Shown here: positions 1 through 5,493 of the stretch, piece by piece
Layout: each line of letters opens with the position of its first letter
Numbering within the stretch: position 1 is the stretch's first letter
Assembly (NCBI GenBank): GCA_024276825.1
Contig: JAJRWI010000053.1
Span: 1-64,000, forward strand
Direction: 5' to 3'
DNA length: 64,000 bases
DNA from: an archaeon
GTDB lineage: Archaea > Asgardarchaeota > Thorarchaeia > Thorarchaeales > Thorarchaeaceae
The notes under the pieces: generated by a model
Database searches by the model: none
What the model saw: only the letters and a program-made list of their open reading frames with translations
What the model was told of the DNA's origin: nothing
Program-made: the position numbers and the translations under genes

Positions 1-1
1 A

Positions 2-310
2 GTTCCAGTTCCCACGGGTCTGGCAATTGAGATTCCTGATGGATATGAGGGGCAGGTACGGCCAAGGAGTGGTCTTGCAATGAATAAAGGAGTGACTGCA
101 TTGAACAGTCCAGGGACCATAGACAGTGGATATAGGGGGGAAGTCAAAATCATTCTGATCAATCATGGTGAGGAGGACTTTCACATAAAACGTGGAATGC
201 GAGTGGCCCAGTTGGCGATTCGTCCTGTGCCTCAAGTCGACTTTGTTGAGGTCGAAGAGTTAGAGGACAGTGAGAGAGGAGCAGGGGGATTTGGCTCTAC
301 TGGATTATGA
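2..310 (+). CDS. dut: dUTPase (5'-truncated by window edge)
   Basis: Frame open from base 2 ([24 protein letters not shown]); motifs [10 protein letters not shown] and [10 protein letters not shown]. Confidence 0.95.
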
Positions 311-358
311 CCAATAGAAAAATAATAGAGATTTGTGAGGGAATCTCCAGTGAGTTCG

Positions 359-1570
359 ATGTCTGATTATGATGTAATTGTTGTTGGTGCAGGACCTGCT
401 GGATCCACAATGGCAAGACAGGCTGCCAAGAGAGGAGTCAATGTCTTGTTGATTGACAAGGAGAAATTCCCGAGAGTGAAGCCCTGTGCGGGTGGGGTCA
501 TCGGTAAGGTCAAGGACATGCTGGATTTTGACATCAGCAGTGTTATTCAAAGGGATGTATACGGTCAGAGGTTCTACTCACCGTCTGGACTTCTCATTGA
601 CTGTACACGACCGGAGGTCTCAGGATTCATGGTGATGAGAGAGGAGTTTGACCACCTGTTGTTTGAAAAGGCCAAGGAGGCGGGTGCCAAGGCGCTTGAT
701 GGAAATAGGGTCGTCAACGCAACTCAAGACAAGGAGGGAGTCGCCGTTGAAACCGAAAATGGAGAGCGATTCACTGCAGAATATCTCGTTGGTGCAGATG
801 GTATAAACGGAGTAGTTGCCAGATCGATTGGGTTCTATGATGGATGGAAAGGAAGTAGTGCGGCGCTCTGCATTGAGGTGGAAGCAGAAGTAGGCAAGGA
901 CATTGTTGAGAAGATATGTGGTGTAGAGTATGACAGTGAGGGTGTGTCCATCGACATCTATTTTGGCCCTGTGCCATATGGATATGCCTGGTGCTTCCCA
1001 AAGCGTACGCATCTCAGCGTTGGAGTTGGAGTCCCACAGGACAAGGTGTCTAACTTGAAGAACACATTCAATGAGTGGTTTGAAGAGTTCAAGAAGAAGC
1101 ATGAGATAGAGCCCGAAATCCTGTCAGACTTGTCATTCAGAGTGCCATATTCTGGGGCAGTGAAGAGGACATTCATGGGAAGAACCGTCCTTCTCGGTGA
1201 TGCTGCAGGCTTTGCAAACCCGTTCTCTGCAGAGGGCATATCCGAGGCGATAGGGTCGGGCATCATAGCGGCCCAAGTGATTGAACGAGCAGTCAGGACG
1301 AAAGACCCGAAGATCCTCAAAGAGTACGAGAAGGGCTGGAAGGCTGCCTTCGGAGAGGACCTTAGCGTGGCCAAGAGCCTTGCTAAGCTCATGTTCAAGA
1401 ATGAGAAGAACATGGAGACCATTCTTAGCCTAGCTCACAGAGATCCTGTCATTAGTGACTACATGTATAAATTGATTGCAGGAAAGGTTTCGTACAAACA
1501 GTTCAAATCCACTGTGATTAAGACCATAGTCAGAAAGTATCCCCGCGCTGGATTATCGCTGTATCTGTGA
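359..1570 (+). CDS. Geranylgeranyl reductase family FAD oxidoreductase
   Basis: YDVIVVGAGPAG, KPCAGG, GADG, GDAAG..NP..AEGI; start placed at ATG 359 rather than GTG 335. Confidence 0.9.
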   Translation: MSDYDVIVVGAGPAGSTMARQAAKRGVNVLLIDKEKFPRVKPCAGGVIGKVKDMLDFDISSVIQRDVYGQRFYSPSGLLIDCTRPEVSGFMVMREEFDHLLFEKAKEAGAKALDGNRVVNATQDKEGVAVETENGERFTAEYLVGADGINGVVARSIGFYDGWKGSSAALCIEVEAEVGKDIVEKICGVEYDSEGVSIDIYFGPVPYGYAWCFPKRTHLSVGVGVPQDKVSNLKNTFNEWFEEFKKKHEIEPEILSDLSFRVPYSGAVKRTFMGRTVLLGDAAGFANPFSAEGISEAIGSGIIAAQVIERAVRTKDPKILKEYEKGWKAAFGEDLSVAKSLAKLMFKNEKNMETILSLAHRDPVISDYMYKLIAGKVSYKQFKSTVIKTIVRKYPRAGLSLYL

Positions 1571-1577
1571 GAATGGG

Positions 1578-1684
1578 TGGTGGGCCGGCCCGGACTTGAA
1601 CCGGGGATCACCGCACGTTTGAATAGCCATGGGAATCATGACTATGTGTCAATGCGGTATCATAGCCAACTAGACCACCGGCCC
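1578..1684 (-). tRNA. tRNA-Val(GAC) with 30-nt canonical 37/38 intron (1617-1646)
   Basis: GGGCCGG acceptor stem, CCGCA/TGCGG anticodon stem, TTCAA T-loop, ACCA end; bulge-helix-bulge TTGA/TCAA with CAC and ACG bulges. Confidence 0.95.
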
Positions 1685-1702
1685 TTGGCTAATGTGAGGT
1701 GT

Positions 1703-1732
1703 TTCCTTTCCAATTAAAAAGATTGTGTCAGA
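1703..1732 (-). repeat. tRNA-Val upstream/promoter segment, copy 1 (copy 2 at 2846-2875)
   Basis: ttcctttccaattaaaaagattgtgtcaga vs ttcctttctaattgaaacgattgtgtcaga, 27/30 identical; TATA-like TTTTTAAT about 30 nt upstream of the tRNA on the minus strand. Confidence 0.85.
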
Positions 1733-1828
1733 TCACATTTGTTGAAAAAAAATGATTGCATGACCGTCATTGAAACATAAAAGACCGCCATGCAATCAAT
1801 GATTCAATCGAAGGGCGGAGATTATTTG

Positions 1829-2518
1829 TTATCTTCTTTTTAGTATGAAGATAATAACCACTACCACCCCTACTATAGCTGCTCCAATTATTATGAAAAG
1901 AGTGTAATCTGGAGCTGGGATGTATTCAAGTAATGTAAAGGTCAGAGTCAATGTTGTAGTGGAGCTGCCCTGAGTAGTTGTTGAGGAATATGTCAAAGTT
2001 TTGAAGACACCTGTGTCTTTTGAAATTGTTGCTGATGCAGATTGTTCGAGTGTAATGCCATCTTCAAAAGTTCCATGTCCACTGATAATCCATTCATTGG
2101 CATTGTTGTTTATTGAGATTGAGTAGACAGTTTCGGTTTGGAAATCAAGACAGAGTTGGGTGAGGAAGTCAAAGTCCCCAACTGGCACAACTAGAGATCC
2201 AATGAGTACTGGTGATATGAGGTCAGTCAATGTTTCCAATAGGAGTTCAGTGTCAAATATTTCGGATTCTATCTTGATTGTAGCTGTTGGAACGTCATAG
2301 TAGCTTGAAATATCTTGGGGAAGTGAATCCAGTCCACCAATTATCATGGTTGCATTGCCTGTTGTGGTTTCAATCTTATTTCCTTGTTCGGTAACAGAAT
2401 AAATGAATCTGTCATTGACAGCAGTACCCCATCGTAATTGATGTGTTGTGGCAGCAACCGGTCCAATGAAAAATAGTGCCATCAGTGCAAGTACAAAAAA
2501 ATGATTCCTATCAAACAT
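1829..2518 (-). CDS. Secreted, C-terminally membrane-anchored hypothetical protein (cassette 1 cargo)
   Basis: Signal peptide MFDRNHFFVLALMALFFIGPVAA, Thr-rich ectodomain, C-terminal TM helix followed by KRR; AT-rich DNA. Confidence 0.8.
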   Translation of the reverse strand: MFDRNHFFVLALMALFFIGPVAATTHQLRWGTAVNDRFIYSVTEQGNKIETTTGNATMIIGGLDSLPQDISSYYDVPTATIKIESEIFDTELLLETLTDLISPVLIGSLVVPVGDFDFLTQLCLDFQTETVYSISINNNANEWIISGHGTFEDGITLEQSASATISKDTGVFKTLTYSSTTTQGSSTTTLTLTFTLLEYIPAPDYTLFIIIGAAIVGVVVVIIFILKRR

Positions 2519-2753
2519 TTCTTTCACACTCGTAGATGGTGGCATTATCTTTTGTTTTTTTTTACTTATTTTAATTTCTGATAATTTTTTCCTCATTTTC
2601 AGTTTGATCAAAATTGTATGAAATTCACATTGATATACTGAACTTTTTGAATAAGGGAGATTAGTTGGATATTGTAATTTTCTTATAATGGCTTAGAAAT
2701 TATCATGATGTAACTTTTAGGAGCAGTAAAGTTCAGTAATTAGCACATTCAGG

Positions 2754-2843
2754 CTAAAAGTACATACCAGCATGCATCGGATATTTCTTTCTGAAGAACT
2801 CGAGAGCCTCACGTTCAAGTGATGAATGCACCTTGGATATTTC
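2754..2843 (-). repeat. Orphan 90-bp copy of the 3' end of gene 4450-4971
   Basis: Encodes EISKVHSSLEREALEFFRKKYPMHAGMYF* vs EISKVHSSLEREALELFRKKYPMRAGMFF* at 4450-4539; inner 45 bp identical, terminal 45 bp with 11 mismatches. Confidence 0.95.
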
Positions 2844-2845
2844 GA

Positions 2846-2875
2846 TTCCTTTCTAATTGAAACGATTGTGTCAGA
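2846..2875 (-). repeat. Second, degenerate copy of the tRNA-Val promoter segment
   Basis: 27/30 identity to 1703-1732; lies 2 nt from the duplicated gene end. Confidence 0.85.
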
Positions 2876-3057
2876 ACAAAATTAGTGGGTGAGGTATGAC
2901 AAGTCTGCAATTGAAGATTAAAAGTTTAATTAGGAGTTAATAAGACGCCAATAAATGCAATTCACGGCATTGAATTAGAATATTGCTTTAATTTAAAAAA
3001 ACTATAAATCAGGTCATATCAACGGCTACAGAAGTAATTCGCAGGGTGGGGCAACGA

Positions 3058-4004
3058 ATGCAATTTAGAGCAATCGGATCAATCTTGCTCGTAATTACTG
3101 CATCTATTTATGGTAATATAGCAATAAATGCGCAGGCAATGAGAAATGAGCAATGCACACAACAGCCCAAAACATGAAAGGTGTCTTGAATACAGGAATT
3201 AATAGGGCAATCCAGTTCAATATTGGAAATTCAGTATTAACCATAATTATTATTCCAAATCATTCTTGCTTTATTATCTATGATAATCAAATATCTCGAA
3301 TCATAGGAATAATAACTGTATGTCCATGTGCGGGCGGATTTACTACAAAGATATTCATAAGTGAAGCACTTGTTTACGATCAAGTGAAAACAAGGAATAT
3401 TCTTGAACCCATGGAATTAGATAGTTTGCATAATGGCAATGGTAGATTCATGATAGAATCTGAAATACCATCAAAATCATTGGGTGGTTATTTGCATGAA
3501 TGGTGGGATGGACTATACTATGTAATAGGACCATCATGGCAAATAAAATATCCCCATCCCAATCGTGAATTTTATCATATTGCATCATTTAATGCATGGA
3601 TTGGATATGGTATGAAATTAATCCATCACCAGATTGATTCAGATATGTCAGCAGTATTAGCAAATTTGGGATGGGCTGCTCTTTTTGCTGCAATAGGAAC
3701 TTTAATTGGTGAGGAAGTGGGAGGACCATATGGAGCAGCAGCGGGCGCAGTTATAGGAACAGTACTGGGCATATTATTTGGATATGCAACACAAGCAATT
3801 CTTTCGGATGAAGAGGGATGCATATGGTGGTGGTCAAGTAAAGATTTTGAGAATTGGCTATCTGATAATGCATGAACAATATGGTGGCTGAGTTTGATTC
3901 TAGGGGGTGCAAATGCCTTTGTAATGAATGGATTTGCAGCATATGGATATCTAAGAATTGGGAGTTATACATTCTATGATGCCGTAAGCGCTGGAAACCC
4001 GTAG
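3058..4004 (+). pseudogene. Disrupted secreted glycine-zipper protein (toxin/archaeocin-like; cassette 2 cargo)
   Basis: Out-of-frame signal-like start MQFRAIGSILLVITASI at 3058; main ORF 3153-3875 with LGWAALFAAIGTLIG..GGPYGAAAGAVIGTVLGILFG; in-frame TGA at 3873 followed by 42 more sense codons to TAG 4004. Confidence 0.55.
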
Positions 4005-4017
4005 GAGTGAGTGATAG

Positions 4018-4410
4018 TTGCGAGAACTGGAGAGATATTTTGCAATTGCAGGACTAGGTCTATTGATATTGGGAATAATAATTGAAACTGTACTGATACT
4101 ATTGCAAACGAATCCATCTTCTAATGATGCTATTCTAATATCAACAACAATAGGCATTTGGTTCATTAGTATGCTATTTTTTAATGTTACATATTGGGAG
4201 TGGAAACATCAACCAAAATTTAGACTTGCAATATTCTTGATTTCATTAGGCATAATTGGGTTCATGTTAATCACTAGTTTTTGGAGTGCCCTTATTCAGA
4301 TGTTTTATCCAAAGTCATACATTCGCTTATTTATGATTATTGATTTTGCGTCAATTGCTTTTGGTGGATGCTTCCAATTGATTCTTGGTAGATCATGGAG
4401 TGTGAGATAG
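4018..4410 (+). CDS. Small 4-TM membrane protein (candidate immunity protein)
   Basis: 130 aa with four hydrophobic segments; starts 13 nt after the extended upstream frame, with a GGAGTGA SD-like motif. Confidence 0.7.
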   Translation: MRELERYFAIAGLGLLILGIIIETVLILLQTNPSSNDAILISTTIGIWFISMLFFNVTYWEWKHQPKFRLAIFLISLGIIGFMLITSFWSALIQMFYPKSYIRLFMIIDFASIAFGGCFQLILGRSWSVR

Positions 4411-4449
4411 TAAGTCAGCACAAGATACTGCACTGTGATAATAGGCTAA

Positions 4450-4971
4450 TTAGAAAAACATGCCTGCGCGCATTGGATATTTCTTCCTGAAGAGCTCGAG
4501 AGCCTCACGTTCAAGTGATGAATGCACCTTGGATATTTCAGAGCTTATGTCCCCAAGATCGGGCCGAGTCAGAATTGGACCTGTAAGTATATGACGTGCA
4601 TCTGACTGCTCGATATCGGTTGGTGTCATAGGATCTCTCTGGATTATTGATCTGATGATAGATTGGGCATCATTTCCCTGATTGATTAGTGAGAGCATCT
4701 GATCCAGATCGGAGTCATGAATGGGCCTGAATCCATAATTGGGAACTCGTCTGATGAAGTCCAATGACTTGTATGAGCCAGGAATCTCCACACCGACTCC
4801 CGTGAACTCAGTAGGATTGATTGGTATGAGTTTAAGATGAAAACTGGAATCAGGGCCTACAATTAGCATGTCACCTTTGGGAGTACTGAGGACATGCCAT
4901 CCCTTCGGAAACTTTGCATAGCGTTCCATGATTCGTGGGACAATGCTGTCTACAGGCTCAGGATCGGTCAT
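4450..4971 (-). CDS. Hypothetical protein (its 3' end borders the cassette array)
   Basis: 173-aa ORF; mostly synonymous divergence of its duplicated 3' end indicates a real gene. Confidence 0.8.
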   Translation of the reverse strand: MTDPEPVDSIVPRIMERYAKFPKGWHVLSTPKGDMLIVGPDSSFHLKLIPINPTEFTGVGVEIPGSYKSLDFIRRVPNYGFRPIHDSDLDQMLSLINQGNDAQSIIRSIIQRDPMTPTDIEQSDARHILTGPILTRPDLGDISSEISKVHSSLEREALELFRKKYPMRAGMFF

Positions 4972-5070
4972 CTGATTCTCGATATAGAATGGACCAGTTT
5001 TGCATATAAAATAAGAGGACTAGTGCAAATGATGAACGGCATTTGATGAGGAGGGGAGCTTGGAATAATC

Positions 5071-5493
5071 TTATGGACGTATCACAAGGCTGCTAAAATC
5101 GGGCGCATCAAGTTCAATGCGGCCCTTGATCATGGGAACATTATCTTCAATCTCATTGACAAGTTTCAAGAGGGCTTTCTCAATCTCATCGGCCTGATCA
5201 AGCCAGTTTCTTGATTTGTCCATCACTTCAGTATAGTCCATTGAGAACTTCACAGTGATTGGAAGGCCATTAATGGGTATTCCCAGTGCCCAGAAAGTCA
5301 CCCTTCTCGCTCGGGGGGTCTCATCAAGGAATGGGTTTTGCAGGTAGTCCAGATCATATGTTATCAAAGACGCGTTTCTTGCCAGTTTCTTAAACTCTTC
5401 ATAATCATCTACCATTATAGGGGGAATCATAATCGGACATTCTATCATGGTCATTTTCATCATCTCACTCTTACTACCGGATACCCCCTTCAT
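5071..5493 (-). CDS. Hypothetical protein (start uncertain)
   Basis: 140-aa ORF with AT-rich TATA-containing upstream region. Confidence 0.65.
   Translation of the reverse strand: MKGVSGSKSEMMKMTMIECPIMIPPIMVDDYEEFKKLARNASLITYDLDYLQNPFLDETPRARRVTFWALGIPINGLPITVKFSMDYTEVMDKSRNWLDQADEIEKALLKLVNEIEDNVPMIKGRIELDAPDFSSLVIRP

Follow-up and report, generated by a model that had tools for sequence, protein, structure and literature searches.

Two tandem cargo units with duplicated borders at the tRNA-Val locus of a Thorarchaeota genome

The Thorarchaeota (Asgard archaeon) genome G000, a metagenome-assembled draft of 2.94 Mb in 82 contigs (98.3% complete), contains an unusual arrangement near the start of contig C45. 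The window analysed here is the first 64 kb of this contig. Between a tRNA-Val gene and a conserved gene for a protein of 173 amino acids (aa), two units follow each other in tandem. They have the same borders and unrelated cargo. We see about an even chance that the locus is a heteroallelic tandem, in which the allele of another strain was stacked at the site, either as a natural 'pop-in' merodiploid or by an unequal illegitimate exchange. The finding is one structural variant in a single metagenome-assembled genome. The tandem is most likely a one-off product of recombination between strains, and there is no sign of an integron-like system.

Anatomy of the tandem

The elements at the locus are arranged in the order P, cargo 1, E1, P', cargo 2 and E2. 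P (1703-1740, minus strand) is the functional promoter of tRNA-Val. E1 (2754-2843, minus strand) is a displaced 3'-end fragment of the 173-aa gene, and P' (2844-2893, minus strand) is a relic copy of the tRNA-Val promoter with its spacer. E2 (4450-4539) is the working 3' end of the intact 173-aa gene (4450-4971, minus strand). The borders stand in direct order, with 2 nucleotides (nt) separating E1 from P'. Each gene end is composed of a stop-proximal tail and an inner core, located at 2754-2798 (including a TAG stop) and 2799-2843 in E1, and at 4450-4494 and 4495-4539 in E2.

The first-pass annotation of this DNA had described two consecutive units with common borders and unrelated cargo, and our repeat search and alignments recover both repeat pairs. 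The segments 2755-2843 and 4451-4539 align over 89 nt with 89% identity in the repeat search as well as in pairwise alignment. Over 90 nt, including the stop codon, the copies show 11 differences, all of which fall within the stop-proximal 45 nt, while the inner 45 nt are identical (0/45 vs 11/45, Fisher p = 0.0005). By codon, the differences comprise three non-synonymous and five synonymous changes and the stop (TAG vs TAA). This uneven, mostly synonymous distribution excludes a uniformly ageing duplication. It supports the reading that the borders behave as divergent alleles, unlike a fresh duplication.

The promoter copies 1703-1740 and 2846-2883 are 84% identical (32/38) and include one 12-nt identical stretch; the earlier count of 27 matches in 30 positions over 1703-1732 holds. 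In a genome-wide search, the gene end (E = 3.6e-27) and P (E = 7.7e-5) are repeated solely at this locus, and no further copy of P rises above chance 12-mers in G000. The two cargos are unrelated to each other. The island has a GC content of 32-41%, compared with 44-51% in the flanks. We looked for shared ends or target-site duplications at both cargo boundaries and saw none. Eight pairs of inverted repeats are present in 1400-5200, none of them at any unit boundary.

Empty site, relic borders and cargo

Protein searches for relatives returned only one close match, P0002, encoded at the nearest relative's locus (L054), which is available as a 5.2-kb Logan contig. The 173-aa protein of L054 is 90% identical to that of the window. 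The DNA is 75-79% identical overall, which places L054 in a different species. There the tRNA is followed by the leader, P, 21 nt and the stop codon of the 173-aa gene, and just 184 bp separate the 173-aa gene from the conserved left-flank gene, which codes for a geranylgeranyl-reductase-like FAD oxidoreductase (GGR; 335-1570, plus strand in the window; Pfam FAD_binding_3 and GGR_cat). Because the L054 site is empty, both cargos of the window are insertions between P and the stop codon.

The empty site also explains the junction. The duplicated borders, P with its spacer and the tail with the 45-nt core, form one contiguous segment of ~150 bp in L054, indicating that the ancestral locus had them side by side. 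Circular permutation of this segment gives the E1|GA|P' joint. The 'GA' at the start of the P' segment corresponds to the last two leader bases of L054, unlike the window's own leader. P' matches the P of L054 at 35 of 38 positions (92%, against a background genome identity of 75-79%), while it matches the resident P at 84%. These comparisons agree with the earlier proposal that the two sets of borders are alleles from two lineages. The module 2844-4539 restores the host gene with a new C-terminus, as had also been suggested, and the C-terminus encoded by E2 is identical to that of L054 at the amino-acid level. Relative to L054, P carries five private changes and P' two; these counts are small, and the relative-rate counts for P/P' and for the gene tails comprise too few sites to be significant.

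The identity of P follows from its conservation. We aligned the 76 nt upstream of tRNA-Val from 13 related genomes and found an unvarying motif composed of a B recognition element (BRE) and a TATA box (..AATCTTTTTAAT / ..AACGTTTTTAAT). The TATA box TTTTTAAT, the reverse complement of 1713-1720, is preceded by AAC or AAT. It is invariant and lies ~28 nt from the mature tRNA 5' end in the window, L054 and most relatives; in three of them (L039, L044 and L053) the motif is located farther upstream. As P contains this invariant upstream motif, it is the tRNA-Val promoter. The tRNA-Val(GAC) gene itself (1581-1684, minus strand) has a 32-nt intron and was recovered with Rfam (RF00005, 51.4 bits), having been missed by ARAGORN.

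Both elements at the junction are decaying relics. The TATA box of P' is degenerate, reading ATTGAAAC at 2856-2863 vs ATTAAAAA, so that P' carries GTTTCAAT in place of the invariant box. P' has only two private substitutions, and both are within this otherwise invariant box. E1 has an open frame of only 32 aa and contains His where 58 of 60 family homologues have Arg. The loss of the TATA box and of a nearly invariant Arg indicates the relic state of P' and E1.

The surrounding gene order is conserved in the family as a block of dut, in some cases GGR, tRNA-Val and the 173-aa gene, followed by three more genes; GGR is syntenic in relatives with dut, tRNA-Val and the 173-aa gene. The latter is present in 35 of the 36 genomes of the family and has no Pfam match. 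The orientation of tRNA-Val in the window is the same as in L054. It is opposite in G001, a genome of the same genus, and in 10 other genera, where tRNA-Val converges on the 173-aa gene, so G000 and L054 are inverted relative to these. In other genera the gap between tRNA-Val and the 173-aa gene measures 16-1769 bp and is empty, or holds a conserved open reading frame (ORF) of 130-162 aa or other genes. The differences in length and content show that this spot is variable. Invariant content, which the first-pass annotation had named as a refutation of its reading, was not seen among the relatives, and the closest one is empty. The conserved gap ORF (starting MIRN..., with a motif ...SA.H.F.) occurs in L035, L039, L041, L042, L046 and L047; a tblastn search with this query did not find it in G000.

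Searches for closer relatives were negative. The 173-aa protein detected no strain-level relatives in metagenome contigs, and scanning metagenome and genome contigs with a degenerate P motif gave no matches. The 90%-identity clusters of four neighbouring and cargo proteins are all singletons, and no other contigs encoding the window's own protein are on record. For P and for both cargos alike, the metagenome, genome, viral and protein collections searched yielded nothing closely homologous.

Cargo 1 (1829-2611, minus strand) is an ORF of ~255-260 aa whose product has a signal peptide and is anchored in the membrane at its C-terminus. It is a member of a Thorarchaeota family that evolves fast and occurs in multiple copies (22-37% identity). 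The family is matched in 65 of 86 family genomes, in none of them at this locus, and no closer homologue was found among 5.8 billion proteins.

Cargo 2 contains two genes on the plus strand. Gene A (3046-4004) once encoded a glycine-zipper protein, secreted or membrane-bound, and is now interrupted by an in-frame TGA at 3873-3875. When the TGA is read through as X, the 43 following codons align with the C-termini of homologues of 289-322 aa, in which the corresponding column is Trp in three of four and Leu in one. The signal peptide lies in a different frame (3046-3177). The in-frame TGA together with the out-of-frame signal peptide identifies gene A as a pseudogene. Only three homologues, 44-49% identical, were found among the 5.8 billion proteins. 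Homologues in family genomes have open frames of 314-353 aa and are located at other loci only. The first-pass annotation had called gene A toxin-like; what we find are weak glycine-zipper matches below the Pfam thresholds, in a gene that is no longer intact. Gene B (4018-4410) is an intact ORF of 130 aa with four transmembrane (TM) segments predicted from hydropathy. An intact paralogous module is present at C14:19760-21066, where the gene for a secreted glycine-zipper protein of 292-322 aa precedes one for a 130-aa multi-TM protein. Genes of the A and B types may therefore form a conserved two-gene unit.

Possible origins of the tandem

The most economical account of the locus is one illegitimate joint and one homologous exchange between two alleles. 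Ancestrally, only ~21 nt would have lain between the stop codon of the 173-aa gene and P downstream of it. Separate lineages would then have gained different low-GC cargo between P and the stop, and the resulting island alleles would have diverged also in the adjoining ~45 nt of the gene tail and in P. Incoming DNA with P', cargo 2, tail 2 and a further 45 nt or more of the gene would have met a chromosome with P, cargo 1 and tail 1. A single illegitimate joint would have linked gene position 2843 to the leader/P' boundary at 2844, and a single homologous exchange would have taken place within identical gene sequence. This could have occurred by insertion of a circularised fragment through a single crossover, or by unequal exchange between two co-resident chromosomes. 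A crossover within the 45-bp core would be one of several equivalent routes, and sequence alone cannot show it.

The expected outcome is an intact gene with tail 2, while the resident tail 1 and its 45-nt core, now E1, would abut the incoming P'. E1 and P' would have been functionless from then on and would have begun to decay. The 45-nt core would be the stretch between the boundary of the island-linked allele and the illegitimate joint. Later recombination between the 45-nt repeats, or between P and P' with their 12-nt identity, could delete either unit. Since the tandem could be resolved in these ways, it gives the impression of a transitional stage in island replacement more than of an array that is still growing.

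The nearest parallels in established genetics are homology-facilitated illegitimate recombination (HFIR; named in PMC6382021 and PMC8116780) and the pop-in/pop-out (Campbell-type) merodiploids that arise in allelic exchange. The likeness to a Campbell-type merodiploid is close. Both flank homologies occur twice, in direct order, around two alleles, and the distal ends of these homologies abut. One homologous exchange and one non-homologous joint suffice, with no need for a site-specific recombinase, and a second crossover can remove either allele. When the locus is unoccupied the borders adjoin, as in L054 with P 21 nt from the stop. The difference is that we are dealing with a natural chromosomal state of an uncultured Asgard archaeon, for which the donor and the uptake route are hypothetical.

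Several observations weigh against this explanation. The tails differ by 24%, as much as G000 differs from L054. The model thus needs deep island-linked alleles within one recombining population, or recombination across species. Cargo 2 is partly a pseudogene, which means that some time has passed since the event or that the donor already had a broken copy. A strain with a single unit of either allele was not found, and all collections searched yielded one close relative, which leaves the donor hypothetical. Finally, the placement of both units on one molecule comes from the assembled contig.

It is possible, though rather unlikely, that 2799-4494 (equivalently 2844-4539) is instead a decayed or non-autonomous integrated element, similar to a cis-mobilizable element, that used a 45-bp att core in the gene's 3' end for site-specific entry and supplied a replacement tail of its own. 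Prophage e14, as well as phage 21, inserts at icd of E. coli and leaves the icdC pseudogene (PMC13626634; Hill et al. 1989 as cited there). Our locus has the same geometry, with an insertion in the 3' end of a protein-coding gene, an intact gene that runs into the incoming DNA and takes a slightly different working C-terminus from it, and, at the opposite end, a C-terminal pseudogene that has been displaced (PMC13626634). As in such an element, the identical 45-nt core flanks the insert as a direct repeat (2799-2843 and 4495-4539), the target gene is intact with tail 2, and the core stands beside a divergent tail. A second locus shows this two-tier pattern as well (C31:471-605 vs 1442-1576), and the decay of the cargo fits an old element. 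Integrative and conjugative elements, integrative and mobilizable elements and cis-mobilizable elements (ICEs, IMEs and CIMEs) also accrete in tandem at the 3' end of a target gene, through site-specific integrases acting on att sites (PMC5704250), and the tandem ssrA islands of Dehalococcoides are built by integrases (PMC3146451). Like our units, these islands are stacked, each is bounded by a repeat of the target-gene end, and decayed members are devoid of integrases.

However, e14 encodes an integrase and excises, whereas the insert described here is 1.7 kb long, lacks any detected recombinase and includes a duplicate of the flank on the other side of the locus. This second border is not an att site, in contrast to those of stacked CIME and ssrA islands. 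P' copies the far flank of its own locus directly against the supposed att core, and an element would have no reason to carry it. The core is found nowhere else in the genome, and searches of viral contigs with cargo 2 gene A and with the core returned nothing similar.

The element would also be expected to have an integrase, or to find one. Described Asgard mobile elements carry integrases (PMC11529989, PMC8813620), and the integrated ones have tyrosine integrases and short att motifs (PMC11529989). The absence of a recombinase from the window, pointed out in the first-pass annotation, extends to the whole assembly: PF00589 (Phage_integrase) and PF00239 (Resolvase) have no matches in the segment, its neighbourhood or the rest of G000, while other recombinase classes were not searched. 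The control for the PF00589 search was positive in 14 of 14 known genomes. The same PF00589/PF00239 search detected no XerA-like recombinase in G000. Tyrosine recombinases are patchy in the family (8/15 genomes). PF00589 is likewise absent from G001 and from about half of the sampled family genomes.

The proposal of integron-like cargo accretion is not supported. The resemblance is limited to a superficial picture of cargo units in line beside a promoter. Integrons possess an adjacent tyrosine recombinase (IntI), attI sites, attC sites made of imperfect inverted repeats, and co-oriented cassettes read from a common promoter, and the locus fails on every feature tested. There is a single junction between only two units, with no integrase and no attI or attC-like structure. 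The cargos lie on opposite strands (cargo 1 minus, cargo 2 plus), no common promoter reads them, and the TATA box of P' is degenerate. E1 and P' at the junction are decaying, and part of cargo 2 is a pseudogene.

We regard an in-situ origin as improbable. Here the empty ~150-bp segment from P to the gene end would have been duplicated in tandem, each copy would have received one cargo insertion, and the 45-nt core would later have undergone gene conversion. Duplicating an L054-like empty segment in tandem would yield exactly this junction, and cargo insertion between P and the stop clearly occurs in the lineage. This scenario nevertheless calls for four events, namely the duplication itself, one insertion into each copy at the same relative position, and gene conversion over a tract ending exactly at the core boundary. 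Without the conversion, the split of 0 vs 11 differences is improbable (p = 0.0005), as divergence should be even along the copies. In addition, the non-functional P' is nearer to the outgroup than the functional P (two vs five private changes, small counts), which is the opposite of decay in situ.

The junction at 2843/2844 was treated as real, on the basis of the contig-end overlaps and the assembly k they imply. Many G000 contigs have exact 141-nt overlaps at their ends, including the end of C7 and the start of C45, which points to de Bruijn assembly at k=141. Since this value exceeds the length of the 89-nt and 38-nt repeats, a misjoin by these repeats is impossible at that k. The E1|GA|P' joint has no long k-mer in common with either parental context and would therefore rest on real 141-mers or reads. 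The last 141 nt of C7 are identical to the first 141 nt of C45 (window 1-141), inside dut, which makes the two contigs neighbours. The break between them, 1.5 kb from the locus, may be a strain-variant branch.

An assembly or library artefact, in which two strain haplotypes were concatenated or a chimeric junction formed, is consequently very improbable: the genome is a metagenome-assembled draft in 82 contigs and the overlap with C7, 1.7 kb away, suggests a graph branch nearby, but the graph alone cannot create this joint, template-switch chimeras arise at homology while the joint is non-homologous, and the contig is unbroken through both units.

Displaced 3' ends elsewhere in the genome

To look for further displaced 3' ends, we combined a nucleotide self-comparison of G000 with a comparison of the C-terminal 50 aa of every ORF to the downstream 25 kb, allowing an open frame of up to 110 aa. 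The layout of an intact gene, cargo and a displaced 3' end is present at four loci, namely the tRNA-Val locus, one on C31, mtd and pfkA. On C31 (locus L075, C31:1-1650), a Molydop_binding/4Fe-4S gene (C31:1-630) is followed by a copy of its last ~135 nt at 1442-1576. In this copy ~64 nt are nearly identical, and a divergent tail with an in-frame stop follows; an 83-aa TM ORF lies in between. At locus L076 (C74:29012-32841), mtd (C74:31975-32841) has a decayed 197-nt copy of its 3' third, located after a gene for an 835-aa secreted Lamin-Tail-Domain protein. In the case of pfkA (C74:8306-9277, locus C74:8306-9999), a 73-nt copy of the 3' end with the stop is found 650 bp downstream. The pfkA copy scored below the cut-offs of the scan and was found by targeted local alignment.

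No recognisable mobile-element genes are present at the C31, mtd and pfkA loci. We looked for a second flank copy similar to P' at the C31 and C74 loci and did not find one. For mtd, the synteny in relatives was uninformative for dating, as the neighbours are not conserved.

Two other repeat pairs were noted in G000. Two tRNA-like 80-mers (C81:100501-100580 and 103860-103939) are 96% identical and 3.4 kb apart. A 250-nt repeat on C28 (74777-75014 and 84767-85015) has 80% identity over a distance of 10 kb. These pairs could be the bounds of integrated elements.

The recurrence of the layout at four loci keeps open a broader reading, to which we assign a low probability. Time and again, the lineage may acquire surface and membrane genes specific to a strain without an integrase, by a route anchored through homology at the 3' ends of conserved genes. 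DNA of relatives, consisting of a gene 3' end and cargo, would be added at these sites, leaving behind the displaced old 3' end. If this were true, the tandem at tRNA-Val would be an island exchange caught midway.

The exchange and stacking of flexible genes in Asgard archaea are poorly understood. The locus provides the anatomy of one such case at nucleotide resolution together with a matching empty site, in which the gain of cargo duplicated the two borders and required no site-specific recombinase that we could detect. If confirmed, it would be direct evidence that recombination between strains shapes variable islands in Thorarchaeota. It would also offer a simple signature for finding more such events, a displaced 3' end accompanied by a relic copy of the flank.

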